DNA of 64,000 nucleotides, from contig CBDFGB010000018.1 in NCBI GenBank assembly GCA_965246915.1, positions 11,617 through 75,616 on the forward strand, given 5' to 3'. The notes below the pieces were generated by a model. The model ran no database searches. It saw only the letters and a program-made list of their open reading frames with translations, and was not told the DNA's origin. The position numbers and the translations under genes are program-made. Within the stretch, counting starts at the first letter, position 1. Each line of letters begins with the position of its first letter. This DNA is from Acetobacteraceae bacterium (GTDB taxonomy: Bacteria > Pseudomonadota > Alphaproteobacteria > Acetobacterales > Acetobacteraceae). Below are positions 46,138 to 61,719 of this stretch, in pieces.

Positions 46138-47385
<1,248 letters not shown>

Positions 47386-47464
47386 GCTCGCCCGCTCCGC
47401 TATGCCCGCGGAGAACCTACACCGCGCACACCTGTCCGAGAACGTGCGCCGGCAGCATATTGCG

Positions 47465-47700
47465 GAGTGGGTCAGGTTGACGGACGATGCGGCGCAACCT
47501 GCGCCTCATTGCAAAGCCGGACAGAAGCAATTTCGGCCCAAGTTGGGCCGAAAGGTCGGAGCACCTCGCCGAGTGGGTCAGGCTGACGGAGAAGGTGGCT
47601 CAACTTGAGCCACCTTTGGGAGATCGCCGCGTGGAGCAGGCTGACGGATAAACCGGCGCAACTTTCGCCGATATTCCTAAAGGTTCTGCGCAACCTGCGC
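47465..47700. repeat. three degenerate direct repeats, each followed by a CAAC(Y)T-loop hairpin, plus a 23-bp palindrome
   Basis: The repeats GAGTGGGTCAGGTTGACGGA (47465), GAGTGGGTCAGGCTGACGGA (47571) and GCGTGGAGCAGGCTGACGGA (47629) each contain the dyad GTCAG-N-CTGAC or a near match. Hairpins lie at 47491-47505, 47594-47614 and 47655-47669, and GCGCAACCTGCGC recurs at 47688-47700. The palindrome TTTCGGCCCAA-G-TTGGGCCGAAA is at 47531-47553. Confidence 0.7.
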
Positions 47701-47784
47701 AAAACCCAAAGGGCGGTCGTCCTGGCGTATTCTCCGCTGCCGTCCGTGAACTCGGCATCGAACGAACGAGGCCCAGCGCGCCGT

Positions 47785-48045
47785 CTAAAGGATTTGCAGC
47801 TCGAATCGCGTCGCGCCGGCAACGCCGGAGGCGGGATGATCGACAAGCAGGATGCCTGAGGGCCGCGCGCCGCAGCCTCCGCACCGGAGCCGAGTGACGA
47901 CACGATAGACGGTCTTCGCCGGCGGGAAGCGTCGCAGAGGCAGGGTTCCGGCTCGTTTGCACGCGCATCGGACGTCTAACCAGTAGGCGGATAGGCCGCC
48001 GCATGTGGCCTCCAGTGCGTCAATCGAGGTAGCCGGATGCCCCAT
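47785..48045 (-). CDS. hypothetical Cys-rich small protein (possible zinc ribbon) heading the leftward int-proximal transcript
   Basis: 86-aa ORF with an ATG start and C..C...C.C......C..C spacing (TCGG, CAC, RLRCGGCG). Competing overlapping ORFs exist on both strands. Confidence 0.3.
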   Translation of the reverse strand: MGHPATSIDALEATCGGLSAYWLDVRCACKRAGTLPLRRFPPAKTVYRVVTRLRCGGCGARPSGILLVDHPASGVAGATRFELQIL

Positions 48046-48114
48046 CCCTGGAGCCTAGGGCCGTCGGGGTGAGAGAACAAGACGTGAACGATGTTCATTC
48101 CGGGTAAAGTAGCT

Positions 48115-48221
48115 TGTAGCCCTTTCCACTACAGTTTGGTTCATAGGAGTGTAGCCCTTTCCGCTACCACGTTTTAGTGAAACACCGCGCAGTAGATTAC
48201 GCATCGTCTGTCAGTTATAGT
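48115..48221 (+). promoter_or_regulatory. promoter/operator module of the rightward replication operon
   Basis: Two copies of TGTAGCCCTTTCC(A/G)CTAC lie at 48115 and 48150. They are followed by CACCGCGCAGTAGATT (48183-48198), a 17-nt spacer and TATAGT (48216-48221). The same CACCGCGCAGTAGATT-N17-CATAGT module recurs at 52224-52262. Confidence 0.5.
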
Positions 48222-48254
48222 GTGTCGAACACCACCTGATAGAGAGGCTAGACC

Positions 48255-48872
48255 ATGCTCAACACCATGAGCCATAGCGAGCGCCGGCATGCGAAGCCGG
48301 TCACGAACCATACGCCGGACCAAATCCGATACCTCCGCCAGTCGTTCTCTGACGCGAAGGACGAGCATCTGACCGCGGCGCGATGCGGCCCACACGGCGG
48401 CCCGCCCGCCACGCCCTACGCATGGGCCAAGGAGTGCGTGTATTCGTGGGCAGATGCCCCGTTCACCCGAGCGGCGGATTCGACGACCTACGGCAAGATC
48501 TATACGTGCCCGCTGGCCGGCTCGGTCCAGGCGGATGCCGCGAACCATCAACGCTTCGATGGCCAGCCTGCAGTTGTCGAGACGGTCCCGCTAGGCCGCT
48601 GCGGCGTGACGGGCGCGTGGTGCTGGGGCGATGCGGTCGTGGCGCTGCTGTCCGACGCGAACCTTTGCGACCAGGTCCTCCGGATCGTGGTGCGCCGCGG
48701 CGATCGCCCCGACGCGGGCATCTTCATGAAAGACGGTCGGGTCAGCCGCTTCTGCGCCGACGCGGACCAGCTGCACCTGGACGCGCTCGATGCACAGGGT
48801 CATTGCGCGGAATGGACGTTCGTCGGTGGGGCGGTCCTCGCGGCGTTGGCTCGCGAGTTGGCCGCGTCATGA
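48255..48872 (+). CDS. hypothetical protein (first gene of the rightward operon)
   Basis: AGAGAGG RBS; 205 aa. The stop overlaps the next ATG (ATGA). The antisense alternative is Arg-rich junk. Confidence 0.5.
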   Translation: MLNTMSHSERRHAKPVTNHTPDQIRYLRQSFSDAKDEHLTAARCGPHGGPPATPYAWAKECVYSWADAPFTRAADSTTYGKIYTCPLAGSVQADAANHQRFDGQPAVVETVPLGRCGVTGAWCWGDAVVALLSDANLCDQVLRIVVRRGDRPDAGIFMKDGRVSRFCADADQLHLDALDAQGHCAEWTFVGGAVLAALARELAAS

Positions 48873-50866
48873 GCGGTGCCCCGGCTGTTGCGCGCGCGGC
48901 CGGGGCAACCGTCCTGGAGCGCATGCTTGCCGTTGCGGCGGAAGGCTATCCCGTGTTTCTCGGGCGACTCGTATCCAAGCCGGGCGGCGGGCATGACAAG
49001 AAACCCGCGATGAAAGGTTGGCAGAAGCGCGCCACTCGTGACCCCGAAGCCATCCGGCGCATGTGTGCCGAGTATCCAAACGCGACGTTGATATGCGTCC
49101 GGACTGGCGAGACCTCTGGCATCGATGCAGTCGACGTGGACCCGCGTAGCGGAGGTGACGTCTGGGAGCGAGACAATTTAGATCTCCTACCCACTACGCG
49201 GGTACACAAGACGCTTTCGGGTGGATCGCACTATATCTATCGGCATGCGTCGGGCGTGCATAACACGGCCGGAGCGATCGCGAAGGGAATCGACACGCGC
49301 GGGACAGGCGGATTCATCGTCTGGTGGCCTGTCTGCGGGGGCAGCGTCCGCGTCAATGCTCCGGTATCCGAGTGGCACGAAGACCTTCGCGCTCTTGCCG
49401 TGAGGAAGTCCGAACCAAGCCCCATTTTGGCGCCACTACCATCCGTTGTGACCACGGACGAAGCCCAAGCCATCTTGCAAGACGCATGCATCGTCATGGA
49501 GTGCGCGGCGAGAGGCGAGCGATATGCCGTTGCGACTAAAATAACGTGGGAGCTGGCACCACTCGCCATCCGCGGCGATCTCGACCCAACAGAAGCCGAA
49601 GAAGCGATCGTCGCCGCTGCGGAGGCTGCCGGCGGCGAGGACATGAACAAGGTTCGCGTTCTGTGGCGGGGCGCCCTCGAAAAGCGAGATAAGAAGCCCT
49701 GGATCGAGCCGCCCCCTCCCGAGGAGGACTTTGGCGAAGGCACGGATGGTTCGCCTCTGTCCGGCGATCGCGAACCGGAACCCGTTACCGATGGTCATAA
49801 GCGGGGCAGCATGCTTGATCGCATGCTCTCGCCGGCACAGTGCGAGGACGGTCCGCGGCGGGAGTACATCATCAAGGGGCTAGCCGCGCGTCAAGACTTG
49901 TCCGTCATCTTTGGTCACCCCGGATCGGGCAAAAGCATCATAACGCCGCATATAGCTTACGCGCTCGCGCAAGGTCGCAATGTGTTTGGGCGGCGTACAC
50001 GCCAAGGCCGAGTCCTTTACATCGCTGCTGAAGATTTCCATGGCATGTGCGCGCGGATCACCGCGCTACGGCGAAAGTATGGAGATGCGGAGGACTTCCG
50101 CGTTGTTGGCTGTGGCAATCTGAACGAACAGCGCGAACGGGATGACGTGAAGTCCGCCGTCACTGTGTTCCGACCAATGCTAGTCGTTATAGACACGGTC
50201 GCGACCGGATGGGCGGGCATGGACGAGAATGACAACTCCGATAAGGGAATGGGCGCGGTTGTAGCTTTCGGAAAGGCTCTTACAGCGCTCGGCCCTGCCG
50301 TGATCCTCGTCCACCATCCCGCCAAGAATGGCGACACGCCTCGCGGGGGCTACGTCTTAGAAGGAGCGGCAGATCTAAGCGCGCGACTTGACGTGAAAGA
50401 CGACTCAGGAATCGTACAGGTTTACGCGCTAAAGAACCGTAACGGTGCGTCGATGCAAAACATCATCGACTTCCGCTTTGAAGTCGTCGGTCTCGGGACT
50501 GACGAGGACGGCGACCCGATCACGACGGTCCGGTGTGTCGAGCTAGAGGCGGGCGAGACGGCGAAGCGCAGCAAGAAATTGGCGCCCGCTGCCGCAGCTG
50601 CGTTGCATGAGCTGCGGGCGCTGGCCTTGGACCGCAAAGACGGACGGGTCGCGGAGTCCGAATGGCGGGCCGCCTGCGTCGAAGGGCGTCGGGTTAGCGC
50701 GATGGAAGACGCGGCCAGCCGCGCGAAAGCGTTCACCCGCGCCGTGACGGCCCTAACCCGTAGCGGCATCGTCGGTTCAAGTTCGGGCAACGTCTGGGTT
50801 ATCGAGGGCGCAAGTGCCTCCCTTGCCGATCTCGTCTCGGGATCTCCAGAGGAGGACTTCGCATGA
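48869..50866 (+). CDS. bifunctional Prim-Pol primase/polymerase with C-terminal RecA-like AAA (RepA/AAA_25-type) domain
   Basis: Prim-Pol N-terminus (YPVFL..., IDAVDVDPRSGG, SGGSHYIYR, KGIDTRGTGGFIVWWP). Walker A GHPGSGKS, Walker B LVVIDT, then ILVHHPAKNG. ATG 48869 chosen; the track ORF begins 162 codons earlier in non-protein-like sequence. Confidence 0.85.
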   Translation: MSGAPAVARAAGATVLERMLAVAAEGYPVFLGRLVSKPGGGHDKKPAMKGWQKRATRDPEAIRRMCAEYPNATLICVRTGETSGIDAVDVDPRSGGDVWERDNLDLLPTTRVHKTLSGGSHYIYRHASGVHNTAGAIAKGIDTRGTGGFIVWWPVCGGSVRVNAPVSEWHEDLRALAVRKSEPSPILAPLPSVVTTDEAQAILQDACIVMECAARGERYAVATKITWELAPLAIRGDLDPTEAEEAIVAAAEAAGGEDMNKVRVLWRGALEKRDKKPWIEPPPPEEDFGEGTDGSPLSGDREPEPVTDGHKRGSMLDRMLSPAQCEDGPRREYIIKGLAARQDLSVIFGHPGSGKSIITPHIAYALAQGRNVFGRRTRQGRVLYIAAEDFHGMCARITALRRKYGDAEDFRVVGCGNLNEQRERDDVKSAVTVFRPMLVVIDTVATGWAGMDENDNSDKGMGAVVAFGKALTALGPAVILVHHPAKNGDTPRGGYVLEGAADLSARLDVKDDSGIVQVYALKNRNGASMQNIIDFRFEVVGLGTDEDGDPITTVRCVELEAGETAKRSKKLAPAAAAALHELRALALDRKDGRVAESEWRAACVEGRRVSAMEDAASRAKAFTRAVTALTRSGIVGSSSGNVWVIEGASASLADLVSGSPEEDFA

Positions 50867-51033
50867 CCGGACAACTGGACAAGATCGGACATGTCCGGGA
50901 CAAGTCCGACATGTCTACCCGCCAAAGCGGCGGTCCCGGCCGGACAGACACGGACACCCCCCTTAAGGGGTGTCTTGTCCTGTCCGTCCGTCCGATGGCC
51001 CATCTATTTGAAGGGGAAGGACGCAAACCATGA
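50863..51033 (+). CDS. possible 56-aa ORF spanning the GGACA cluster
   Basis: Its ATG overlaps the replicase stop (ATGA) and its TGA overlaps the next ATG (ATGA). The product MTGQLDKIGHVRDKSDMSTRQSGGPGRTDTDTPLKGCLVLSVRPMAHLFEGEGRKP has no recognisable domain. It is below the track length cut-off and was found by hand. Confidence 0.3.
   Translation: MTGQLDKIGHVRDKSDMSTRQSGGPGRTDTDTPLKGCLVLSVRPMAHLFEGEGRKP
50869..50985. repeat. iteron-like cluster of GGACA/TGTCC pentamers and palindromes immediately 3' of the replicase gene
   Basis: GGACA occurs at 50869, 50877, 50887, 50898, 50942 and 50952; TGTCC occurs at 50892, 50976 and 50981. A 12-bp palindrome CGGACATGTCCG lies at 50886-50897 and GACATGTC at 50908-50915. 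A hairpin GACACCCC-ccttaa-GGGGTGTC spans 50953-50974. Confidence 0.6.
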
Positions 51034-51203
51034 ACCAGAACGTTCCCGCGGCGCGCTGCCCCTGCGGACGCGACTCGCAAGCGAAGCGGCAAGGCTGCGA
51101 GCGGTGCGCGGATGCCCCGAAGTCCAGCCGGGCGAGCAAGACCGATCGGCGCTGGACGAGACACGGCCGGAAAGCCAAGGCGAGCCGCTACTACGCGTCC
51201 TGA
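51030..51203 (+). CDS. small basic Cys-rich protein (57 aa, CxC...CxxC)
   Basis: AAGGGGAAGGA RBS. Product MNQNVPAARCPCGRDSQAKRQGCERCADAPKSSRASKTDRRWTRHGRKAKASRYYAS. Hand-translated. Confidence 0.4.
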   Translation: MNQNVPAARCPCGRDSQAKRQGCERCADAPKSSRASKTDRRWTRHGRKAKASRYYAS

Positions 51204-51215
51204 AGGGTTCAAGCC

Positions 51216-51947
51216 ATGAATCAAAACCAAGCCGCCCGCATCAAGGCTGCCAAGACGCGCACCTATATCGCGCGGACCATGGCAGCGTTACCCGCAGAAG
51301 ACCGATCCCCGTTCAAGGCTGCACTGGACGGCACCCGCGATGCGTTCGAAGTCTGGGCACTCGCGCCCGAACAGAACCGCCCGGCCGTGCTCCTGGCGTT
51401 CTACTTGAACCACTGCCCGCCCGATCGCTGGCGCGAGATGATGCGGCTTCAATGGTTGCAGGCTCATCGTGCGTTGTCCGATGCTGCCAAGGCCGCGGGA
51501 GTCGACCGGGTTGAACTGTTCCGCGCCGCGCAATTCGCTATCCCAGCGGACTTGCCCGAGACGTTGACCGTCTTCCGCGGAACCGTGGGCATCATTCCGC
51601 GCGTAGCGGCAACCGGCCTCAGTTGGACCACTGACCGTGCTGGCGCTGCCTGGGTGGCATGCGGGCTGTTGCGAGCGAGAGGCATCGACCCGAGCAAAAC
51701 GCCATGCGTGCTCCGACGCGACGTCCGCCCATCGGAGGTGCTGTTCTTTGAACCGCGGAACGATGCGCTCCAACGCATCGACGAGATCGTCCTGGCGCCC
51801 GGGCCGGCAAGGGTGGATGGCACACCGGCCGATTGGCGCGCGTTTGCCGCCGAGTGGGAGGAAGGCGAGTTGGCGCGGCCGATCGTGAGCGACGAAGTCC
51901 GTGAGGCCATCGCTACAGCGAGGCGTAGGCTGGGCGTAGCGGCCTGA
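51216..51947 (+). CDS. hypothetical protein (243 aa)
   Basis: AAGGG RBS and protein-like composition; the antisense ORFs look spurious. No domain recognised with confidence. Confidence 0.55.
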   Translation: MNQNQAARIKAAKTRTYIARTMAALPAEDRSPFKAALDGTRDAFEVWALAPEQNRPAVLLAFYLNHCPPDRWREMMRLQWLQAHRALSDAAKAAGVDRVELFRAAQFAIPADLPETLTVFRGTVGIIPRVAATGLSWTTDRAGAAWVACGLLRARGIDPSKTPCVLRRDVRPSEVLFFEPRNDALQRIDEIVLAPGPARVDGTPADWRAFAAEWEEGELARPIVSDEVREAIATARRRLGVAA

Positions 51948-52198
51948 GACATGCTGCGCACCTCTCGCGGGCCGCACGGCGCGTGGCGCGAACGTGGAGG
52001 CTGCAGCGTGGCACTGGAACGATGGAGGGGAGGGTTAAGCGTAAAGCGAGTTAGGCGGCGTAACCGTGCCAGTGGTCCATTTTCACCGAGAACAAAAATT
52101 TGAGCCCCGACCCTTCCGTGTTAGGTCAATAATCCTGTCCTGATCTAAGACTATCGCAAAACGCAGATCGGAAAAGCGTCGGGCGCATAGTGTTGCTC

Positions 52199-52262
52199 TG
52201 TAGCGGAAACCACTACGTTACTTCACCGCGCAGTAGATTTTCTTTCGTCTTGACGTCATAGT
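52199..52262 (+). promoter_or_regulatory. promoter/operator module of the head-gene operon (paralogue of 48150-48221)
   Basis: TGTAGCGGAAACCACTAC is the dyad of the 48150 site in inverted orientation. It is followed by CACCGCGCAGTAGATT (52224-52239), a 17-nt spacer and CATAGT (52257-52262), only 6 nt before ATG 52269. Confidence 0.5.
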
Positions 52263-52268
52263 CAGAGT

Positions 52269-52694
52269 ATGAGTTACGCTATACACGCCAGCGCGACGAT
52301 GACCATGCGAGACGTGGCTTTTGCCAGCGGGGTCGGCGCGCGTCGGCTTTGGGAGCTACGTCGACACGGCTTGGAATTGTCCGCGGACGATGTCTCGCGC
52401 CCGCGCGGCATCCATGCGCGATTCACCGAGGCCGATGCTGTAGCCGTCGCGATCCTGGAAGCGACGATTCGCGCTGGCGATCCGCCATCGCGCGCGCTCC
52501 GTCTCGTTGGACATGTGCTCCGCATGATCGGCGGCGCGTACCGCGATAGCCGGGCCGCAGATCTAACCGTGATGTTCGCGAATCTCCGGCTGACCGTCCC
52601 CTGCACGACGATCGAGATTCGCCTTGACGAGATCGCCCGCGGGGTCGCGTCGCGCATCGAATCCCTCAACCTCATAAGGCAGCAATCCCAATGA
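52269..52694 (+). CDS. MerR/excisionase-type HTH protein; small-terminase-like candidate
   Basis: N-terminal MTMRDVAFASGVGARRLWELRRHGL looks like a MerR-type winged HTH. 141 aa; the stop overlaps the capsid ATG (ATGA). The true start may be the internal ATG at 52299 or 52305. Confidence 0.45.
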   Translation: MSYAIHASATMTMRDVAFASGVGARRLWELRRHGLELSADDVSRPRGIHARFTEADAVAVAILEATIRAGDPPSRALRLVGHVLRMIGGAYRDSRAADLTVMFANLRLTVPCTTIEIRLDEIARGVASRIESLNLIRQQSQ

Positions 52695-53938
52695 CCATCC
52701 GTGAGATCCAGGCGAAGCGCAGTGCTGTCGCGACAGAGATGCGCAGCATTCACGCCGGCGCGGCGGATGGCGCCCTATCCTCCGAGGCACAAGTCCGGTG
52801 GACAGCACTAAGCGATCAGGCGGAATCGCTTGCCGCCCAGGAACAGCGCGCCGCGATGTTGGACACCCTCGACCGCGCGGCGACAGGACAACCCCTTGAC
52901 GCAGCTTTCGACCGCGAGCGTGACCGCGTGTCCCTCGGCGATGCGATCCGCGCCGGCCTCGGTGCTACCGATCACGGTGCGGGCCGTGCGCGCGAGATGT
53001 CCGCGGAGATGGCGCGACGGAGCGGGCGCAGCCCGGAAGGCATCCTGTGGTCCATGGGCCATGAGAAGCGCGTGAGCACCGCGGCTGGCAGTGCGGCAAA
53101 CCTGATCGCCACCAACCTGCAGGCTGCGAGCTTCATCGAGCGGCTTTATGCCGCCACTCGCGTGAAGCAGCTGGGCGCCACGGTGCTTTCCGGGCTTCAA
53201 GGCAATGTGGATATCCCCCGCCTAGCCGGCAGCACCACGGCTTACTGGATCGCCGATAACGCTGCAGTGACTGCCTCCGACGCGACCTTCGACAAGGTCT
53301 CGCTACGACCGAAGACCGTAGGCGTGCTGTCCGAGGTGAGCCGCCTCACGCTGCTACAGTCCACGCCCTCGATTGACTCGCTCATTGAGAGTGACATGGC
53401 CCGCGTCCTGGCGCTGGCCTTGGACGCCGCGGCTATTAGCGGACCCGGCACGGGCAATCAGCCGACCGGCATCCTTAATACGGCGGGAATCGGGAACGTC
53501 GCCATGGGCGCCACCGGCGGCGCCCTGACGTATGCCGCGGTCGTCGACCTGATGGGCGAAATTCAGGACGACAGTGCGGATGCGGGCGCGCTGGCGTTCC
53601 TCTCAAACCCCAAGGTCCGCCGGGCTGCTGCCAAGTTGACCACGACCTACAACGAACCCTTGACCGAGGAGGTGGTGTGGCAGTCGATGCCGCGGCAGTT
53701 CACGACCGCAGTTCCGTCAAACCTTACGAAGTCGACGGCTACCGGCTTGTCCGCTCTGATCTACGGCAACTGGTCAGATCTAATCATGGGCATGTGGAGT
53801 GAACTCGATATATTGGTGAATCCTTACGAGTCGACCGCTTACCCGAAAGGGAACGTGCAGATCCGCGCCATGGCAACCATGGACATCGCGGTCCGGCATC
53901 CGGAGTCGTTCGCCGCGATCAAAGACATCGTAGCGTAG
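52691..53938 (+). CDS. HK97-family phage major capsid protein with N-terminal delta/scaffold-like coiled coil
   Basis: MTIREIQAKRSAVATEMRSIHAG...AQEQRAAMLDTLDRA, followed by an HK97-fold body (…LRPKTVGVLSEVSRLTLLQS…, …DILVNPYES…). 415 aa. Confidence 0.9.
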   Translation: MTIREIQAKRSAVATEMRSIHAGAADGALSSEAQVRWTALSDQAESLAAQEQRAAMLDTLDRAATGQPLDAAFDRERDRVSLGDAIRAGLGATDHGAGRAREMSAEMARRSGRSPEGILWSMGHEKRVSTAAGSAANLIATNLQAASFIERLYAATRVKQLGATVLSGLQGNVDIPRLAGSTTAYWIADNAAVTASDATFDKVSLRPKTVGVLSEVSRLTLLQSTPSIDSLIESDMARVLALALDAAAISGPGTGNQPTGILNTAGIGNVAMGATGGALTYAAVVDLMGEIQDDSADAGALAFLSNPKVRRAAAKLTTTYNEPLTEEVVWQSMPRQFTTAVPSNLTKSTATGLSALIYGNWSDLIMGMWSELDILVNPYESTAYPKGNVQIRAMATMDIAVRHPESFAAIKDIVA

Positions 53939-53948
53939 GACTGGGGAC

Positions 53949-54275
53949 GTGGCATCGATCGTCGGCACCGGCACGCTATCGGCGATCGGCCCCGGTGAGG
54001 CCGTGCGTATCTCTGGCGTGTTCAACGTGAGCATTACGACCGCGTCGACCGTCGCGCAGCTGGGCATAGAGCGCAGCTTCGACAATGGGTCGACGTGGCT
54101 CCCGCTGTCGGTTCTCCCCCCGACGGGCAATCAACCCGTGGCGATACAGCTAGGCGTCCCGGGCAGCATCGTCCTGACCGAGCCGGAGGGCGGCACTCTG
54201 TATCGCGTGGTCGCGCGAGCCGACCTTGGCAGTACGACGGTCGCGACTCCGATTACCTGGAGGATCTCGCAATGA
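53949..54275 (+). CDS. hypothetical phage protein (108 aa, beta-rich; possible decoration or head accessory protein)
   Basis: GTG start after GGGGA. The stop overlaps the protease ATG (ATGA). Lies between capsid and protease. Confidence 0.45.
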   Translation: MASIVGTGTLSAIGPGEAVRISGVFNVSITTASTVAQLGIERSFDNGSTWLPLSVLPPTGNQPVAIQLGVPGSIVLTEPEGGTLYRVVARADLGSTTVATPITWRISQ

Positions 54276-54808
54276 GCATTGAGCGACGACATGCGCCGTG
54301 CGAGTTCCGGGCCGCGGCGGCCGGGACGAAGCTGGAGGGTTACGCGGCCGTGTTCGCCAGTCCGGCGCGGATCGGTCAGTTCGTGGAGTCGATTCGCGCG
54401 GGCGCGTTCCGCACGACGTTGGCCAACAAGACGCGCGACGTCCTGGCTCTCGTAGATCACGACTCGACACGCCTGCTCGCCCGCACGTCCAGTGGCACGC
54501 TGCGGCTTGCGGAGGATACGCGCGGCCTGCATTTCAGCCTGGACATCCCCGACACGACGCTAGGCCGCGACGTCCGCGCCCTGGCCGAACGTGGCGACCT
54601 AGGCGGCATGTCCCTAGGCTTCGATCTAGTACCCGGCGGCGACTTCTGGGCCTCAAAAGACATCCGAGAGATTCGCGCGGTGCGGCTGTTCGAAGTCAGC
54701 GTCATCAACGCATTTGCGGCCTACCAAGCGACAAGCATCGCCATCCGCTCCATCGCTCGCGCCGCCGCGGATGCCCGCATACGTGAGATGCGGCTCGCGT
54801 CGTTATGA
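54272..54808 (+). CDS. HK97-family prohead serine protease (S78)
   Basis: LEGYAAVFASPARIGQFVESIRAGAF....LALVDHD....LART.SGTLRL.ED..GL.F......T..G.D......RGDL.GMS.GF is the S78 pattern. ATG 54272. Confidence 0.85.
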   Translation: MSIERRHAPCEFRAAAAGTKLEGYAAVFASPARIGQFVESIRAGAFRTTLANKTRDVLALVDHDSTRLLARTSSGTLRLAEDTRGLHFSLDIPDTTLGRDVRALAERGDLGGMSLGFDLVPGGDFWASKDIREIRAVRLFEVSVINAFAAYQATSIAIRSIARAAADARIREMRLASL

Positions 54809-56094
54809 GCGCAATGGGCCGTCTGTTCCGGCGCAAGCCACGTCCGTCGCCAGCGATCGAGCATCGCGTGATGCAGTGGCCTGCAGCGACGCTGGGCGGC
54901 TTGAACGCGCGTAGCGTCGACACGATCGCCGCGAGCAATCTGACCGCGTATATCGCCTGCATCGACCTCATATCGAAGGCTGTAGCCGGTCTACCGGCAT
55001 CGATCATGCGCGACGATGGGCGGGGAGGACGTGTCCCGGCGCCGGGTGCTCCGGCATCGCGACTGCTGACGCGACCGAGCAAGCATCAACCGTGGCCCTC
55101 GTATATCTCGACCGTGGTCGGGTCCCTCCTCGAACATGGCAACAGCGTCTCCTTGATTCAGACCGACGGACGCGGCAACGTGACTGGTCTTGTGCATGTG
55201 CCGTATGCTTGGCTCGCGCCGGTCATTCTGCAGAGCGACGCTGGCGCGCGGCTCGCGTTCGATCTGCGACAGATCACGGCGCAGTCGACCTTGCTCGGGA
55301 TTCCGCGGCGCATGATCTCGGGCGAAGATTGCGTACACGTCATGATGGGCAGCGCGGACGGCATCGTTGGCCGCGGGGTCCTGGAGCGCGCGCCACGGCC
55401 GATTCAAGCCGCGCTAGAGATCAACGAGTGGGCCGCGCAGTTCTATCGCAATGGCACCGCTGCAACCGGAGTCGTCTCGCTCCCTCCGAACATCAGCAAG
55501 CCCGGCATGGACCGGCTTGAAGCGTGGTTCACGGACAAGTACACCGGCATCGACAACGTCGGCCGTCCGCTGTTCCTGGACGCCGGGTCGGAGTTCACAC
55601 CGCTCTCGGCCACGTCAGTTGAAGCGCAAGTCCTGGAGTCGCGCCGGTTCGCGGTCGAGGAGATATGCAGGCTATTCGGAGTCCCGGTGGAACTGGTCAT
55701 GAGCGGAACCAGTGCGCCAGCCAGCTTGACCCCTTATCTCGCGGCCTTCGCAACGATGAGCGTGGGGCCGCTGGTCCAACTGATCGAATGGGCGTTCGAC
55801 GATATCCTCCCGGTGGGCGAGCACCTGTTCCTTGATACGGCTGGTCTGGTTCGTGGCGATTGGACGGCAGTGGCAGCTGCACAAGCCGTACTCGTGCAAT
55901 CAGGCATCGCGACCGCGAACGATGCCCGCCGGGCAATCGGCCTCCAGCCGCATAAGGACGGTGATGCGCTCCGCGTCGGCTCACCGCCGTCATACCCCGC
56001 CGACGCGACCGGCTCGCCGAGTCTGGCCCCGAAACCCGGGCCGGGCGGCAATCTACCCAATGTAGGTACGCACCAGAACGAAGGCCGCGGCTAG
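54805..56094 (+). CDS. HK97-family phage portal protein
   Basis: 429 aa. The ATG overlaps the protease stop. Portal-like segments: SNLTAYIACIDLISKAVAGLP, HGNSVSLI, FYRNGTAATGVVS, DAGSEFTPLS, ...EEICRLFGVP. Confidence 0.85.
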   Translation: MSAMGRLFRRKPRPSPAIEHRVMQWPAATLGGLNARSVDTIAASNLTAYIACIDLISKAVAGLPASIMRDDGRGGRVPAPGAPASRLLTRPSKHQPWPSYISTVVGSLLEHGNSVSLIQTDGRGNVTGLVHVPYAWLAPVILQSDAGARLAFDLRQITAQSTLLGIPRRMISGEDCVHVMMGSADGIVGRGVLERAPRPIQAALEINEWAAQFYRNGTAATGVVSLPPNISKPGMDRLEAWFTDKYTGIDNVGRPLFLDAGSEFTPLSATSVEAQVLESRRFAVEEICRLFGVPVELVMSGTSAPASLTPYLAAFATMSVGPLVQLIEWAFDDILPVGEHLFLDTAGLVRGDWTAVAAAQAVLVQSGIATANDARRAIGLQPHKDGDALRVGSPPSYPADATGSPSLAPKPGPGGNLPNVGTHQNEGRG

Positions 56095-56184
56095 CAAAAT
56101 GCGTGCGATGTAGCCGGAGATGCTACTTGCGCAATGATCGGAAGCCGGTCCAGATGGCGTCGGTTCAACCGAGGGAAACATACA

Positions 56185-56463
56185 ATGCCCAACGATACGA
56201 TGTTCCTGGCACGCGCCGCCCGTGAGGCCGAGGACGCGATGAACACTGCGCCCGATCCGGCAGCGCTCCAGCGGTTTATGTCGGAATGGTCGAGGCTAAT
56301 GCGCAAGCTGGCGACGCGGCCCGCCCGGACGATGGCGGAGGCTCATGCCAAGGCGGAGGCGATACGGGCCACGGTCCAGGGGAATGACTGGCAGTCTCGT
56401 TTTGTGACCGGGTTGATCGACGACGTGAAGCGAATTGCAGGGGTGCGGGCAGGCGGGGCTTAG
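56185..56463 (+). CDS. hypothetical helical protein (92 aa)
   Basis: GAGGGAAA RBS before the ATG at 56185. Followed by the hairpin GGCCCGGGGA...TCCCCGGGCC (56484-56518). Confidence 0.4.
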   Translation: MPNDTMFLARAAREAEDAMNTAPDPAALQRFMSEWSRLMRKLATRPARTMAEAHAKAEAIRATVQGNDWQSRFVTGLIDDVKRIAGVRAGGA

Positions 56464-56586
56464 GCGCTCGTCGCGCAGTCGGCGGCCCGGGGATTTCGGT
56501 GGCCCGAGTCCCCGGGCCGATCTACGCAATAGGTTCCATCCGTCTCCTCACCTTACGCCTACCGGACCAACACATGAGGTCCGGAA

Positions 56587-56664
56587 ATGACAACGATGCA
56601 CTCCATCAGCCTTGCAATCCTGATCCTGGAGATCGTCAAGATGTTCCTCGAATTGCGACGCTGA
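56587..56664 (+). CDS. candidate 25-aa hydrophobic peptide (MTTMHSISLAILILEIVKMFLELRR)
   Basis: GAGG lies 7 nt upstream of the ATG, and the SD can pair in the hairpin CCGGACC-N9-GGTCCGG (56563-56585). A/T-richer locus next to attR. Hand-found, below the track cut-off. Confidence 0.3.
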   Translation: MTTMHSISLAILILEIVKMFLELRR

Positions 56665-56677
56665 TGGCAGTTCAAAT

Positions 56678-56731
56678 CCTTCCAACTAGCTTTTCCCGCC
56701 TCGCGGTTTGCTGGCCTTGTGAGTTGGAAGG
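56678..56731 (+). terminator. hairpin made of two inverted CCTTCCAACT motifs followed by a T-rich tract (terminator and/or integrase arm sites)
   Basis: CCTTCCAACT (56678-56687) pairs with AGTTGGAAGG (56722-56731), followed by TTTACGAGGCTTTTAT. The same decamer occurs at 46256 and 46290 beside attL. Confidence 0.4.
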
Positions 56732-56759
56732 TTTACGAGGCTTTTATCCGACTGTTCGC

Positions 56760-56803
<44 letters not shown>

Positions 56804-56805
56804 GC

Positions 56806-59800
56806 CTACTCAATCCTCAGTATTCCTAGCGTCTCGCCGCCCTTGACCTCACGGCCGGGCGCGCAGAGCCACCTTTGAATACGCCCGGCGGCGCCGGCCA
56901 CGACGCTGATCTCCGTCTTCATCGATTCGATGATGGCAACCGCCTGGCCGGGGAACACGCGCTCGCCCACCGTCACGAGAACCTTCCAGACGATCCCCGG
57001 CACCGGGGACGCAAGGGCGGCGCAGCCGGTGGGGATGTCATCGGTGGCGACATCGGCTGTCTCCGCCGGCTCGAACCGGTCCAGTCCGCGCGCCGTCCAG
57101 TCCTGGCGTTCCGCCTCGAAGGCCGCCTGCTGGCACGCCCGCGCGACGGCGATCTCAGCCGCATGCCGGGCCAGGAACGTGTCGTACGCGACGGTCTCGA
57201 AGGCCGTCTCCTCAATACGGATATCGTAGCGGCCGTGCGGAAACGCCGCTCGCGCATCGAGAAGTTCCTCCTCCGAAACCGGAAAGAACCGGATCTGGTC
57301 GAAAAACCTCAGCAGCGGCCGCTTCGTGAACGCCGTCGTCCTGCGCCAGGAGTTCCAGACCTGGATGGTGCGGCCGAACAGCTGGTATCCGCCTGGCCCC
57401 TCCATTCCGTAGATGCACATATACGCCCCGCCGATCCCCACCGCGTTCTGCGGGGTCCAGGGCCGGGCTGGATTGTATTTGGTCGTGACCAGCCGGTGCC
57501 GAGGGTCCAGCGGCGTGGCGACCGGCGCGCCCAGATAGACGTCGCCCAGCCCCATCACGAGGTAGCTCGCGTCGAAGACGATCGCGCGCACGTCGTCTTC
57601 CGACGCGAGGCCGTTGATGCGGCGGATGAACTCGATGTTGGACGGGCACCAGGGCGCGTCGGCTCGCACCAGATCCTGATACCGCAGCATCGCGAGCCGC
57701 GTCTGTGGATCGTCCCACGACAGCGGCAAATGGACGATGCGGCTCGGGATCTTGACGTCGGCGGTAGACGACAGGCCCGCCTCGATCCGCGTCACGGCAT
57801 CCAGCAGGTATTGTAGCGACAGCGCCGCCGGATCGTAATGCACTTGGAGCGATCGGATGCCGGGCGTCAGGTCGATCACGCCCGGCAAGGCTTCGTCCTT
57901 CAGCGCGTCATGGAGCAGCTGCACCCGAAGGCGCAGGCGGATGTCGAGCATCAGCGGCCCGTATTCGATCAGGATGTTGGCGTCCCCGGCACGACGGACG
58001 ACGACGCTCGTCTCGCCGTCGATCCGCAGCAACACGGGATCGCCCGCCGGCTGCGACGCACTGTCCGGCGGGCCAAGCGACGGCGTCGCCAGGCGTCGGA
58101 AGCGGACCGTGTCGCCGGGCCGAAGGTGCCCCAGCTTCCACAGATCCTCGCTTGCCACCACGGCCGGGCAGACGAATCCGCCGAGGCTCGGCCCGTCCGG
58201 CCCGAGGATGATCGGCATGTCGCCGGTGAAGTCGACCGCCCCGATCGCATAGGCGTTGTCGTGGATGTTCGATGGATGCAGGCCCGCCTCGCCACCGTCG
58301 CGACGCGCCCATCGCGGCTTCGGGCCGATCAACCGGATGCCGGTCCGGGCGCTGTTGTAGTGCACCTCGTACTCACGGCCGAACAGATCGGCGATGTCGT
58401 CCGGATGGAAAAAATCCGGCGCGCCGTGCGGCCCGTAGAGGACGAGGAGATCCCACGCGCCGGTCAGCGGCGCGGGCGGCAGCGGCGGGCTTTCGACAGG
58501 TGGCTGATCGTCGAGCCGCAGCACATCGCCGACCCGCAGAACGCCGGTGGCATGGCCGCCAAACCCACCCAATGCGAAAGTCGCGCGCGAGCCCATGAAG
58601 ACGGGGGCCGCGATCCCGCCCCGCACCGCGAGCGTGGCGCGCATTCCGCGGCCCTCGATCGCACCGATCGTCAAGATTTCGCCACGCCGGACGCCGAACG
58701 CCGTGTCGTGCGGGACAACCGCGCCGTCGACGGTGGCCACCATTACCGCGCCGCAGATCGCGACGAGCGCGTCCGTGTCGAACCGCAACGTCGGGCCCGC
58801 CAGCGTCATCTCCAGCGCCGCCATCTCGGGCGGGTTGCGGACCAGCGCGTTGGCGCGGCGGTGGCTCCAGGGGTCCATCGGCCCGCTGGGCGGCACGCCC
58901 ACCGCCCAGGCGCCAAGCCGCCCGGGCAGTTCCTGCACGCTGCTTTGGGTGCCTGGCGACAGGACCGCGACCGCACGTGGCGCGAACGCGACGGCCGCGA
59001 GCGTGGCGGTCGTCATTTTCGCGTCGCCGAACGCCGGCACGTCGAGGATCGTCGCCAGATAGTCGAGGTTGGTTTCGACACCCCAGATCGCGCTCTCCGT
59101 CACGGCGCGTCGCAGGTTCGCGACGGCCTCGGCGCGTGTGTTGCCGCGGCCGATCAGTTTTGCCAGGAGCGGATCGTAGTGGGGCGTCACCTCCACGCCG
59201 GTTTCGATCCAGGTCTCGACGCGCACATTCGGCGCCCATCGCACCTCGGTCAGCAGCCCGGTGCTGGGGCGGAAATTCTCCGCGGCGTTCTCCGCATAGA
59301 CGCGCGCCTCGATCGCATGGCCGCGCGACATCAGCCGGTCCTGCGGAGGCAGGTCGAATTCGCCCGCCGCGTGCCGCACCATCCATTCGACCAGATCGAC
59401 GTCGAACACGTCTTCCGTCACGCAGTGCTCGACCTGCAGACGTGTGTTCACTTCCAGGAAGTAGAACGCCTCGGCGTGCGCGTCGTACAGGAACTCCACG
59501 GTCCCGGCGCTCGCGTAGCGAGCTCTTCGACACAGCGCGCGCGCGGCCTCATGCAGCGCCAAGCGCACCCTGTCCGACAGCCCCGGCGCGGGCGTCTCCT
59601 CAATGACCTTCTGATGGCGTCGCTGCAACGAACAATCGCGGTCGCCGAGGCTGACCACGCGACCCTCGCCATCGCCAAAGATCTGCACCTCGACGTGGCG
59701 AGCCTGAGCGACATATTTCTCGAGGTATACGCGCTCATCGCCGAAATTGGCCCGCGCCATCCGTTGCACGATCGTGAACTTCTCCACCAGCTCAACCGCG

Positions 59801-60315
59801 TCGCGGCAGACCTGCATGCCGATCCCGCCGCCGCCCGCGGTGCTCTTCAAGATCACCGGAAAACCGATGGTATCCGCCGCCTCCCGAGCCGCCGCGGCGT
59901 CGGCGAGGACCGGGCTGCCCGGCAGCAGCGCGACATCGCTCGCCACGGCCAGTTCGCGCGCGGTATGCTTCAGGCCGAACGCGCGGATCGTATCGGCCGA
60001 GGGGCCGATGAAGCGGATGCCAGCCGTCTCCAGGGCTTCGGCGAAGGCGGGCCGTTCGCTCAGAAATCCGTAGCCTGGATGAACAGCTTCGGCGCCGGTC
60101 GCGCGACAGGCATCGACGATCGCCTCGATGCGCAGATAGCTCTCGGCCGCCGCCGACGCGCCGATCGCCACGGCCTCGTCGGCCGCCAGCACCGGCGGGG
60201 TAAAGCGGTCGGCCTCGGAATGCACCGCCACCGACGCGATACCCATGCGTCGCAGGGTCCGTCCGATGCGCGCGGCGATCTCGCCCCGGTTGGCGATCAG
60301 AACCTTCTTGAACAT
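56806..60315 (-). CDS. urea carboxylase family enzyme (biotin carboxylase + KipI/KipA-like carboxyltransferase + biotinyl domain); probably a guanidine carboxylase given its neighbours
   Basis: MFKKVLIANRGEIAARI... is the ATP-grasp biotin carboxylase N-terminus. The central allophanate-hydrolase-subunit-like domains are present and the C-terminus has the AMKTE-like biotinylation site IESMKTEI. 1169 aa. Confidence 0.9.
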   Translation of the reverse strand: MFKKVLIANRGEIAARIGRTLRRMGIASVAVHSEADRFTPPVLAADEAVAIGASAAAESYLRIEAIVDACRATGAEAVHPGYGFLSERPAFAEALETAGIRFIGPSADTIRAFGLKHTARELAVASDVALLPGSPVLADAAAAREAADTIGFPVILKSTAGGGGIGMQVCRDAVELVEKFTIVQRMARANFGDERVYLEKYVAQARHVEVQIFGDGEGRVVSLGDRDCSLQRRHQKVIEETPAPGLSDRVRLALHEAARALCRRARYASAGTVEFLYDAHAEAFYFLEVNTRLQVEHCVTEDVFDVDLVEWMVRHAAGEFDLPPQDRLMSRGHAIEARVYAENAAENFRPSTGLLTEVRWAPNVRVETWIETGVEVTPHYDPLLAKLIGRGNTRAEAVANLRRAVTESAIWGVETNLDYLATILDVPAFGDAKMTTATLAAVAFAPRAVAVLSPGTQSSVQELPGRLGAWAVGVPPSGPMDPWSHRRANALVRNPPEMAALEMTLAGPTLRFDTDALVAICGAVMVATVDGAVVPHDTAFGVRRGEILTIGAIEGRGMRATLAVRGGIAAPVFMGSRATFALGGFGGHATGVLRVGDVLRLDDQPPVESPPLPPAPLTGAWDLLVLYGPHGAPDFFHPDDIADLFGREYEVHYNSARTGIRLIGPKPRWARRDGGEAGLHPSNIHDNAYAIGAVDFTGDMPIILGPDGPSLGGFVCPAVVASEDLWKLGHLRPGDTVRFRRLATPSLGPPDSASQPAGDPVLLRIDGETSVVVRRAGDANILIEYGPLMLDIRLRLRVQLLHDALKDEALPGVIDLTPGIRSLQVHYDPAALSLQYLLDAVTRIEAGLSSTADVKIPSRIVHLPLSWDDPQTRLAMLRYQDLVRADAPWCPSNIEFIRRINGLASEDDVRAIVFDASYLVMGLGDVYLGAPVATPLDPRHRLVTTKYNPARPWTPQNAVGIGGAYMCIYGMEGPGGYQLFGRTIQVWNSWRRTTAFTKRPLLRFFDQIRFFPVSEEELLDARAAFPHGRYDIRIEETAFETVAYDTFLARHAAEIAVARACQQAAFEAERQDWTARGLDRFEPAETADVATDDIPTGCAALASPVPGIVWKVLVTVGERVFPGQAVAIIESMKTEISVVAGAAGRIQRWLCAPGREVKGGETLGILRIE

Positions 60316-60331
60316 CTCGCTCGACGGCCGG

Positions 60332-60955
60332 TCAGCGCGCGTCCCACACCAGAATGCGGATCGGCGTCGGATTGAATCCGTTGCAGGGATTGTTCACCTG
60401 CGGACAGTTCGACAGCACGACCAGCACATCCATGTCGGCCCTCAGGTCCACGTGTCCGCCCGGGTCGGACAGGCCGTCGACGATCGCCAGTTCACCGTCC
60501 GGGCTGATCGGCACGTTCATGAAGAAATTGACGTTTCCCACGATATCGCGTTTGCCCATGCCGTGACGGCCCACTTCCAGCAGGAAGTTCTCGCGGCACG
60601 CATGCAGGTATTTCGTGTCGTGGCCAAATCTGACCGTGTTCGCCTCGCACGAACAGGCGCCGGCCGACGTGTCGTGCCGGCCACAGGTGTCGCCAACCAC
60701 GGTCATCAGCACCCGGCCCTCGTTGGACATCAACCGCGTGCCGAGCCCGACATACGCCGCCCGCTGCGCCAGCAGCGTGTCGTGCGCGCTGTAGCGTTCG
60801 CCGTAGTCATTCGCATTATAGAACAGCGCATCGACCGCCTGTTGGCCTTCAAGGTCGATGATGCGCAGGGTCTGGCCGGCCCGCAGCACCGAGGACCAGG
60901 GCGCGCGAGCGGGCACGACGACGTCCAGCACCGCGCCGGCGGCATCCAGGGCCAT
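60332..60955 (-). CDS. urea carboxylase-associated family protein 2 (DUF1989)
   Basis: ATG 60955 overlaps the upstream stop (TGATG). Motifs LRIIDLEGQQAVD...DTCGRHD...VDLRADMDVLVVLSNCPQ are characteristic of DUF1989. Confidence 0.85.
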   Translation of the reverse strand: MALDAAGAVLDVVVPARAPWSSVLRAGQTLRIIDLEGQQAVDALFYNANDYGERYSAHDTLLAQRAAYVGLGTRLMSNEGRVLMTVVGDTCGRHDTSAGACSCEANTVRFGHDTKYLHACRENFLLEVGRHGMGKRDIVGNVNFFMNVPISPDGELAIVDGLSDPGGHVDLRADMDVLVVLSNCPQVNNPCNGFNPTPIRILVWDAR

Positions 60956-61719
60956 CAGATCGCTCCATCGGTGTTTTGGAATCCTCGCACCGCCTCGTCG
61001 CTCAAATTGCGGCACTCGTCATCCACGCCGGGCGGCGGCGCCTGCCAAAGAATCGCCTCGACCGAGCCGGCCGCCTCGGCATCGGGCGACAGTGGATGCG
61101 GGCAATTCGACAGGGCGACGAGAAGATCCATCTCGGCGCGCAGATCGACATGCTGGCCAGGCCGGAGCACGCCCGGCTCCCACGCGAGCGTGCCGTCGTC
61201 GGCCACCGCGACCGGCGCGAAGAACGTCATGCAGGGTGCGATGTCGCGGCGGTCGAGGCCCTGTTTGCCGGCCGCGAGCCGCAGGTTGTCGCGCGTGTTG
61301 CGGCCGCGGCCGCCGCCGCCGCCGCCAACCAGCGCGTCATGGCGCCCGCACGTGTCCCCCACGATCGAGACGAGCACCCGACCCATGTCGGAGAACAGGA
61401 CCCGTCCCCGGCCGAGGCGCGCGGTCCATTGCAGCTTGACGGTGTCGCCGGCATTGAAGCGCTCCGTCGTGTCGTGCGCGTTCCAGAGCATCGCGGCGAT
61501 GCCCGATGTCGCATGCGTGTTCACGAGCCGAAGCGCCTGACCGCGCAGGATGCGCGCCGACCAGTACCAGCCGGACGGCACAACCTCTTGTCGAATCACG
61601 CGATCGGCCGTGAAATGATCGGCCACCTCCCGCGCGGCGAGGGTTCGCGACCGAGCCGTGTCACGCAACTGGGTGTAGCGCTGGCGGTGCTGCTCCGGCG
61701 TCATTCGGTCAAGTTGCAT
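60955..61719 (-). CDS. urea carboxylase-associated family protein 1 (DUF1989)
   Basis: GGAGG RBS; start MQLDRMTPEQ. Motifs LRLVNTHATSGIAAMLWN...GDTCGRHD...VDLRAEMDLLVALSNCPHP; paralogue of the downstream gene. Confidence 0.85.
   Translation of the reverse strand: MQLDRMTPEQHRQRYTQLRDTARSRTLAAREVADHFTADRVIRQEVVPSGWYWSARILRGQALRLVNTHATSGIAAMLWNAHDTTERFNAGDTVKLQWTARLGRGRVLFSDMGRVLVSIVGDTCGRHDALVGGGGGGRGRNTRDNLRLAAGKQGLDRRDIAPCMTFFAPVAVADDGTLAWEPGVLRPGQHVDLRAEMDLLVALSNCPHPLSPDAEAAGSVEAILWQAPPPGVDDECRNLSDEAVRGFQNTDGAI

Follow-up and report, generated by a model that had tools for sequence, protein, structure and literature searches.

The window analysed here, a 64-kb stretch from an Acetobacteraceae bacterium (GCA_965246915.1, contig CBDFGB010000018.1, positions 11,617 to 75,616, forward strand), carries an island of 10,593 bp (46164-56806) whose ends are 44-bp att repeats in tRNA-Thr. 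On the plus strand, attL is a 50-nt repeat (46164-46213) with a 44-bp exact core (46167-46210) that corresponds to the 3' part of tRNA-Thr(TGT) (46138-46209), and attR (56757-56806) is identical to it at 48 of 50 positions. A tyrosine integrase is encoded on the minus strand (46144-47385; PF00589, 2.8e-16), its 3' end running into the tRNA/att core, and arm-type decamers CCTTCCAACT are found on the attL side at 46256 and 46290 and on the attR side at 56678 (+) and 56722 (-). A search for the empty site with the joined flanks found none; in genomes of the same genus, the tRNA is retained, but its flanks are not syntenic. Rfam returned no match in the island apart from the tRNA, and annotation with Pfam, PHROGs, and NCBIfam revealed no tail, holin, or lysis gene in any island ORF.

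All further features lie on the plus strand. A control region with three 57-nt repeat-plus-hairpin modules (47454-47674) is followed, upstream of the replication operon, by two GTAGC-N7-GCTAC dyads (48116 and 48151) and then a promoter-like cassette (together 48116-48221), the first copy of which reads CACCGCGCAGTAGATT-N17-TATAGT (48183-48221). The operon comprises orf205 (48255-48872; GC3 0.82), ATGA-coupled to the gene of a PrimPol and AAA_25 replicase/helicase (48869-50866; PF09250, 3.8e-22; PF13481, 6.2e-28), and nine GGACA/TGTCC iterons immediately downstream (50869-50985) are a candidate replication origin. The next gene, orf243 (51216-51947), has a weak match to phrog_4776, and its sole homologue in a word-indexed homology search (P0009) lies on a phage-like contig, beside a gene for Peptidase_S78_2. 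The structure model of orf243 (pLDDT 44.8) was too poor for a fold search, and therefore, a tentative assignment to an ADP-ribosyltransferase or MuF-like fold was dropped. A third dyad (52200-52216) and the second copy of the promoter cassette (52224-52262) lie ahead of the head operon (together 52200-52262), which the cassette is predicted to drive; the fourth dyad (56110-56126) is located between the portal gene and orf109. These four are the only exact GTAGC-N7-GCTAC dyads in the 64 kb, and all of them are inside the island at regulatory positions. Neither a cos or pac site nor a helper mimic was found: compared with phage records and with the rest of the genome, the intergenic DNA gave no match.

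The head operon (52269-56094) has the one-strand order described in the initial annotation, that is, a 141-aa HTH protein, capsid, a 108-aa ORF, protease, and portal, with three ATGA junctions. The first of these overlaps joins orf141 (52269-52694, although translation may actually begin at M11 or M13) to the gene of an HK97-fold major capsid protein (52691-53938; PF05065, 1e-35; TIGR01554), the second joins orf108 (53949-54275) to a prohead serine protease of family S78 (54272-54808, with 54272 as the most likely start; PF04586, 5.9e-37), and the third joins the protease to the portal gene (54805-56094; PF04860, 1.1e-58; TIGR01537). The capsid gene and orf108 do not overlap and are spaced by a 10-nt gap. 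GC3 frame analysis supports both orf141 and orf108 as coding. The latter is an orphan: a word-indexed homology search returned its own protein alone, and a weak counterpart (24% identity) occupies the same position in one related locus (L094). A helical protein, orf109 (56134-56463), follows the portal.

The order capsid, protease, portal had been regarded as non-canonical, on the premise that described capsid-forming satellites, too, almost always have terminase, portal, protease, and then capsid. This premise is wrong: the order published for proteobacterial cf-PICIs is capsid-protease-portal-connectors first, followed by hnh-terS-terL (Alqurainy et al., bioRxiv 10.1101/2022.09.08.507074). 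To collect related capsid loci, an alignment-based query worked where a single-sequence query had returned nothing. The order capsid-protease-portal is shared by 60 of the 63 capsid homologues analysed, which group apart from the three loci with the portal ahead of the capsid (SH-aLRT 74, a weak branch, in the capsid tree and 97 in the portal tree). Hence, the suggestion that the permuted order marks a separate lineage holds insofar as these loci group apart, but the lineage is that of the cf-PICIs, already described with exactly this arrangement, and the gene order is not novel. The two closest complete phages inspected, with at most 38% identity, have the canonical order TerS-TerL-portal-capsid instead. 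A Klebsiella record (MK433583) considered as a cf-PICI was rejected as an ordinary HK97-like prophage fragment.

What sets the island apart is its lack of a packaging module. Consistent with the large terminase having been noted as missing, HMMs built from related elements found no TerL, HNH, P27-type TerS, adaptor (ADAPT), or connector (CONa, CONb) among the island proteins, nor did a search of the six-frame translation of 42691-64000, which covers the whole island. A tblastn search over the whole genome also returned none of these packaging genes, and neither it nor the six-frame HMM search of 42691-64000 revealed traces of a TerL pseudogene. A TerL of the PF03354 (Terminase_1) type is absent from the genome altogether. 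With HNH, TerS, TerL, connector, and adaptor missing, the island is left with 6 of the 11 cfPICI core genes. Since seven of nine other hosts of terminase-less elements likewise have no Terminase_1-type TerL, the motor would need to be supplied by an infecting phage or drawn from another terminase family.

The island is not alone in this respect. The 50 loci that could be typed comprise 20 complete elements (INT..CAP-PRO-POR-HNH-TerS-TerL, most of them also with adaptor and/or connector genes), 17 elements of an alphaproteobacterial type, in which HNH-TerL precedes the capsid gene, and 13 elements that have no TerL, a form that has arisen at least six times. Repeated loss of TerL along the tree is what decay predicts, and one may ask whether the element is the remnant of a cf-PICI-like one in decay, which has lost HNH-TerL and no longer transfers, its head genes being relics or reused, for example, for interference with phage assembly. 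The presence of just 6 of 11 core genes and the lack of a cognate TerL in most host genomes would fit such a fate, as would the strongly accelerated portal of the window, which is only 34 to 39% identical to its relatives, compared to 47 to 70% among those relatives, and sits on a branch about 10 times the median length in the portal tree; relaxed constraint could be one meaning of this long branch. However, none of the island ORFs is disrupted, and they are coupled; the two att repeats match almost perfectly, the island still has its arm sites, iterons, and promoters, and there is no trace of a TerL pseudogene. Furthermore, the nine of the 13 terminase-less elements that have att repeats, mostly tRNA-derived, hold a size of 8.6 to 11.3 kb, with other genes replacing TerL (TerL-bearing relatives mostly have 10.2 to 11.2 kb), and the head-gene dN/dS of TerL-less pairs is 0.16 to 0.50, like that of a TerL-bearing pair. 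Judged by these ratios, the head genes of terminase-less elements are under purifying selection, and the elements look like working units. We consider decay unlikely.

No helper phage was identified. The terminase could also be supplied by another satellite, either a TerL-bearing relative or an island at tRNA-Ser on another contig (C17) of the same genome. The latter encodes an integrase, a primase, a D5_N helicase, a complete TerL (Terminase_6N/6C), and a scaffold-like DUF6651 protein, with no recognised capsid or portal, and its gene content complements that of the island studied here. However, its TerL is of a different family than the Terminase_1 TerL of the lineage and has its closest matches in other alphaproteobacterial families, and no TerL of this type co-occurs with terminase-less elements in two further genomes (G006 and G029) or elsewhere in the family set. 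A relative as the donor is opposed by the absence of the PF03354 TerL from most hosts of terminase-less elements. The tRNA-Ser island was rejected as the partner, and dependence on any other satellite appears very improbable.

The gene that opens the head operon, orf141, had been proposed to encode a TerS-like specificity factor that redirects a helper TerL. The MerR/excisionase-like HTH at its N terminus, on which this proposal was built, is genuine: a profile built from orf141 plus its three homologues matches MerR (5crl; E 2.6e-5, residues 8 to 72), and Pfam MerR_1 is matched by the family members P0006, L048, and L033, the last two passing the cut-off, whereas a word-indexed homology search with orf141 returned nothing. 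The structure model (pLDDT 81.6) has a MerR-type winged HTH, a beta-hairpin, and a long C-terminal helix (residues 119 to 140) predicted with high confidence. Its best PDB match, over the full length, is CvkR (7xn2; TM 0.60/0.57), a MerR-type transcriptional regulator of 148 aa, followed by CarH, SoxR, CueR, and MerR. The identity to CvkR is 12%, the Foldseek E value is 0.046, and the genetic contexts differ; DNA binding by orf141 is a prediction. No similarity to TerS was found with Pfam, PHROGs, NCBIfam, or the P27-type HMMs from relatives, and there is no terminase among the best 50 matches listed for the PDB or the best 50 listed for BFVD.

The HTH of lambda Nu1 is itself a MerR-like winged HTH. 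A small terminase or packaging-specificity factor of this kind, whose winged HTH binds repeats of the element and whose C-terminal part recruits the TerL of a helper or of the element itself, would fit the setting of orf141, which opens the head operon and is coupled to the capsid gene: gpNu1 and P27-type TerS are likewise small, have an N-terminal HTH, and are encoded where a head or packaging operon begins. In addition, alphaproteobacterial-type elements with HNH-TerL have no P27-type TerS between the two, while beta/gamma-type elements have a P27-type TerS and not the orf141 HTH family, so that the two are largely complementary. One homologue of orf141 is only about 39% identical beside an 88%-identical capsid, as a specificity determinant would be, and the four repeated dyads are possible terminase-binding sites. 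On the other hand, orf141 matches gpNu1 and P27-type TerS in neither sequence nor fold, with MerR-family regulators leading the PDB matches listed; it is not adjacent to any TerL; the single long C-terminal helix of the model would fit a dimer better than a ring; and dyads directly precede two promoters, that of the replication operon included. Two terminase-less loci (L028 and L032) even have a P27-type TerS plus an ORF just upstream of the capsid gene, although membership of this ORF in the orf141 family is not established. The family precedes the capsid gene in TerL-bearing as well as TerL-less relatives, in the former away from TerL; therefore, orf141 is not a substitute gained upon loss of TerL. 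In sum, a Nu1-like role is doubtful, and orf141 is probably not a small terminase.

We rather infer from sequence and model that orf141 is a MerR-type dimeric DNA-binding regulator, conserved across this branch as the leading gene of the head operon. The four dyads and the duplicated promoter suggest a regulator role, and the dyads near promoters are most likely its site of action. Classical MerR proteins bind in the spacer between the -35 and -10 elements; the candidate dyads are upstream of the -35 element and outside the spacer. Moreover, regulators are not usually translationally coupled to the structural protein of highest abundance, which speaks against this role.

Like cf-PICIs, of which EcCIEDL933 is the prototype, the island has an integrase, a replicase, and an HK97 capsid, protease, and portal of its own, in the order published for Proteobacteria, but no tail or lysis genes, and its capsid and portal group with elements carrying the full cfPICI gene set. 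It differs from cf-PICIs in the missing packaging and head-tail connector genes, in the MerR-type protein that heads the capsid operon, and in its size of about 10.6 kb (the published median is 14 kb). The cfPICI model of SatelliteFinder (PMC10085698) accepts 9 to 11 of 11 core genes, with AlpA, MerR, or Stl as regulators; of its components, the island has the integrase, regulator, and primase/replicase module (PF00589, the MerR-type protein, PF09250 plus PF13481) and its own capsid, protease, and portal, but not its own HNH/TerS/TerL. The term Alphaproteobacteria is absent from the text of that paper; the host here is a member of the Acetobacteraceae. With classical PICIs/SaPIs and P4, the island shares a small genome and its own integrase and replicon, and it would need the TerL of a helper as well. 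However, those satellites remodel the capsid proteins of the helper and do not encode a portal or major capsid protein themselves, whereas the full procapsid set is encoded in the island, in which no analogue of TerS, Rpp, Sid, or Cpm is recognisable. Described capsid-encoding satellites (cf-PICIs, MulchRoom/MiniFlayer), in turn, carry their own terminase. What is new here is the gene content, the terminase-less form, and not the gene order.

Taken together, we favour, with a probability of roughly 0.55, a reading in which these genes form the head operon of an integrative phage satellite of 10.6 kb that replicates itself and belongs to an alphaproteobacterial cf-PICI branch, with orf141 as a MerR-type regulator. 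In this model, induction by a helper phage would lead to excision and replication of the island, the two rightward operons would fire from the duplicated promoters, and the island proteins would build their own small procapsid, while the helper would provide terminase, head-completion proteins, tail, and lysis functions in trans. More tentatively, capsid-forming satellites without terminase and connector may represent a distinct, recurrent strategy between classical PICIs and cf-PICIs, in which a private procapsid, portal included, fixes the capacity at about 10 kb and a foreign helper terminase docks on the satellite's own portal and fills the procapsid. The accelerated portal might then reflect re-matching to a heterologous motor and connector, and the fast-diverging MerR-type protein might be a switch or specificity factor.

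The retention of portal, protease, and capsid without a motor turns the specificity of portal-terminase docking into a testable question. Those classical satellites that borrow the helper terminase bring neither portal nor capsid, and the combination found here differs from theirs; its recurrence suggests that the packaging module can be shed repeatedly at a fixed satellite genome size. Our data extend cf-PICI-like elements to the Acetobacteraceae and other Alphaproteobacteria, where detection models that demand 9 to 11 of 11 core genes would miss them. Roseomonas sp. KE0001, an apparent isolate (RefSeq NZ_RCVQ01) with two such elements, is a possible experimental system.

The head genes of the island form a single, co-directional module at 52269-56094. 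The gene for orf141, a MerR-type winged helix-turn-helix (wHTH) protein (52269-52694), is followed by genes for an HK97-type major capsid protein (52691-53938; PF05065, 1e-35; TIGR01554), orf108 (53949-54275), an S78 prohead protease (best start at 54272; PF04586, 5.9e-37) and an HK97-type portal protein (54805-56094; PF04860, 1.1e-58; TIGR01537). All five open reading frames (ORFs) read as coding by third-position GC, and ATGA overlaps couple orf141 to capsid, orf108 to protease and protease to portal. The five-gene, one-strand, coupled head module of the initial annotation was thus confirmed by Pfam and NCBIfam matches, codon composition and overlaps.

A direct repeat of 50 nt with an exact core of 44 bp (46164-46213 and 56757-56806) delimits an island of 10,593 bp, whose GC content is a few points lower than that of the flanks. 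The left copy is the 3′ part of tRNA-Thr(TGT). An empty site could not be demonstrated, flanking synteny being lost in the species-level relatives compared. At the left end lies the gene of a tyrosine integrase, and four CCTTCCAACT arm-type decamers adjoin the att sites; the integrase frame overlaps the tRNA-Thr gene and the att core by 66 nt (46144-46209), so that its last 22 codons are att sequence. The next element in left-to-right order is a control region with three repeat-plus-hairpin modules, followed by orf205, a PrimPol+AAA_25 replicase, nine GGACA iterons, orf57 and orf243, the head operon and, at the right end, orf109.

Both rightward operons are preceded by the cassette CACCGCGCAGTAGATT-N17-(T/C)ATAGT (at 48183 and 52224), a duplication that we read as a putative −35/−10 promoter. 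Exact GTAGC-N7-GCTAC dyads occur four times in the 64-kb window, all within the island (48116, 48151, 52200 and 56110); the control sites at 48116-48221 and 52200-52262 combine dyads with promoter cassettes, and the one at 56110-56126 is a dyad only. In L033, one of the homologous loci collected from other genomes, a comparable motif is common to the upstream regions of the replicase and HTH genes. The modules of the control region (47454-47674) are 57 nt long and consist of a GTCAGG(Y)TGAC dyad and a hairpin with variable stem and conserved CAAC(C/T)T loop; an Rfam search with them gave no match. The three copies fall in three different reading frames, and therefore, the repeat acts as nucleic acid (DNA or RNA). 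The nine GGACA/TGTCC pentamers are packed into ~120 bp (50869-50985) directly 3′ of the replicase gene and are a candidate replication origin; related CGGACA(A/C)GCCGGACA iterons lie 3′ of the replicase gene in L035, which comes from a congeneric genome.

The order capsid-protease-portal had been taken as a departure from that of described capsid-forming satellites. This premise was wrong: the paper on capsid-forming phage satellites (cf-PICIs) gives the same order for the proteobacterial head genes, with the packaging genes hnh-terS-terL (bioRxiv 10.1101/2022.09.08.507074), and the order is, therefore, no novelty. To place the island, 80 loci, many of them from metagenome-assembled genomes, were gathered by alignment of capsid homologues (one genome per species), and their genes were mapped by tblastn, clustering and HMMs. 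In a tree of 63 capsids, the 60 from capsid-protease-portal loci grouped together, and three distant loci with the portal before the capsid fell outside; the branch separating the two orders had weak support (SH-aLRT 74) in the capsid tree and good support (97) in the portal tree. The closest complete phages reached a capsid identity of at most 38%, and the two closest that were inspected have the order TerS-TerL-portal-capsid. Given this grouping and the different order in the inspected phages, capsid-protease-portal is the signature of the known cf-PICI lineage. The suggestion that the permuted order marks a distinct lineage hence holds as far as the trees are concerned, but the lineage is not a new one.

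The missing motor gene, in turn, was borne out. Pfam, PHROGs and NCBIfam found no terminase, HNH, connector, tail or lysis gene among the island ORFs, and genome-wide searches of the window's genome revealed no relative of the lineage's TerL, HNH, TerS or connectors. The PF03354 TerL is absent from this entire genome; of nine other type C hosts, seven lack it as well. Types were defined among the capsid-protease-portal loci, by our own clustering and HMMs. Type A (20 loci, beta- and gammaproteobacteria) has the order INT..CAP-PRO-POR-HNH-TerS(P27)-TerL, in most loci with adaptor and/or connector genes as well, and represents the published cfPICI gene set in full. Type B (17 loci, mainly Alphaproteobacteria) is arranged as rep-HNH-TerL-x-HTH-(c21)-CAP-PRO-POR-(Xis-like)-INT. 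Type C, with 13 loci of which the window is one, has the same head operon without TerL; Roseomonas sp. KE0001 has two terminase-less elements. In none of the type C loci did a six-frame HMM search reveal a TerL, adaptor or connector; an HNH gene lies 3′ of the portal gene in one of them, another has a weak HNH-like match outside the att-bounded element, and two have retained a P27-type TerS. In these two (L028:8317-8772 and L032:8339-8995), the small terminase gene lies 5′ of the capsid gene without a TerL, an arrangement reminiscent of classical PICIs, which redirect the TerL of a helper. The SatelliteFinder model for cfPICIs has 11 core genes and accepts 9 to 11 (PMC10085698). With 6 of 11, the window's element, although related to cf-PICIs and working partly alike, falls outside this definition.

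It had been proposed that orf141 is a TerS-like factor that redirects a helper TerL. Only three real homologues (33 to 40% identity) were found in 1.84 billion representative proteins. Two are encoded directly 5′ of capsid genes (L093 and L094, the latter with the order HTH-capsid-112 aa-protease-portal-78 aa-integrase), and the third matches Pfam MerR_1. Iterative searches placed the family 5′ of the capsid in six type C loci (L048, L033, L023, L013, L017 and L021) and four type B loci (L030, L027, L081 and L072); the L048 and L033 members exceed the MerR_1 gathering score. A four-sequence profile matched MerR (5crl) across the wHTH (2.6e-5). The AlphaFold model (pLDDT 81.6, pTM 0.79) has a MerR-type four-helix wHTH with a disordered wing (residues 39-49), continued by a short helix, a β-hairpin and a C-terminal helix of 22 residues. 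Its best PDB match, over the full length, is CvkR (TM 0.60/0.57), described as a novel MerR-type transcriptional regulator, followed by CarH, SoxR, CueR and MerR. No terminase was among the best 50 matches listed for PDB and for BFVD, and the P27-type TerS HMMs of the relatives failed to match orf141. Judged by sequence and predicted fold, orf141 is a putative MerR-type DNA-binding protein that most likely regulates through the dyads of the island. Nor does it replace the lost motor, since TerL-bearing relatives have it too. A packaging role like that of Nu1 appears unlikely, even if the gene is translationally coupled to the capsid gene and the family's distribution is largely complementary to that of P27 TerS across types A and B. 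The comparison with the metagenome contig L093 (HTH gene at L093:120-572) also speaks for such a role: orf141 is only ~39% identical there beside an 88%-identical capsid (capsid dN/dS 0.15), a contrast that in itself points to an exchange of modules or to fast divergence of the HTH protein.

Is type C simply a decayed form? Several points argue against it. Within the alphaproteobacterial clade, type C is interspersed among type B and has at least six separate origins. Nine type C elements have flanking att repeats, mostly tRNA-derived, and measure 8.6 to 11.3 kb, compared to mostly 10.2 to 10.9 kb in type B and mostly 10.8 to 11.2 kb in type A (loci L013-L091); all of these are shorter, near 10 to 11 kb, than the published cfPICIs (median 14 kb). 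Since the HNH-TerL space in type C is filled by other genes while overall length is maintained, we infer a capsid-capacity constraint. Furthermore, dN/dS of capsid, protease and portal was 0.16 to 0.50 in three type C pairs and 0.08 to 0.33 in a type B pair, values that are rough with dS near saturation. The window's element has kept att, arm sites, iterons and promoters, and all its genes are intact and coupled. On the other side stands the window's portal, whose long branch favors decay or else re-adaptation. Its terminal branch in the portal tree is 2.48 substitutions/site (median, 0.26), although it is placed within the expected subclade; it is 34 to 39% identical to relatives that share 47 to 70% among themselves. 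The divergence is uniform along its length, and neither the capsid nor the protease of this element stands out. The L093 contig, whose capsid is so similar, stops short of the portal gene. The acceleration could mean that the portal adapted to a terminase or connector of foreign origin, or else that constraint was relaxed.

One of orf108, orf109, orf205 and orf243 could be an unrecognized head-completion or packaging factor. On a phage-like contig, the sole homologue of orf243 (51216-51947), L097:2734-3651 (37% identity), immediately precedes a Peptidase_S78_2 gene, and therefore, orf243 may be head associated.

In our model, a helper signal would derepress or activate both duplicated promoters. 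The integrase would excise the island at the tRNA-Thr att sites, and the PrimPol-helicase would replicate it from the GGACA iterons, as the anatomy suggests. By the precedent of cf-PICIs, and consistent with purifying selection, capsid, protease and portal would form a private small procapsid, and the functions absent from the island (terminase, head-completion proteins, tail and lysis) would be provided by a helper phage to finish the particle. A possible resident helper is a myovirus-like prophage in the same genome (contig C29, ~60000-75000) that has a TerL (Terminase_6N), genes resembling those of portal and capsid, and ORFs interpreted from sequence as genes for tail sheath and tube. A second satellite-like island lies beside tRNA-Ser (contig C17, ~51600-61900; L108:8661-18923) and encodes an integrase, a primase-like protein, a D5_N/DUF5906 helicase, a 123-aa ORF, a complete Terminase_6N/6C TerL and a scaffold-like DUF6651 protein (phrog_206); neither a capsid or portal nor an att repeat was recognized in it. 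Its TerL was considered as a partner of type C and rejected, as it does not co-occur with type C elements elsewhere. Neither prophage nor second island has DNA in common with the island of the window.

In sum, a terminase-less and connector-less variant of cf-PICI-like satellites, of which no description was found in the satellite literature examined, recurs in Alphaproteobacteria and is apparently functional.
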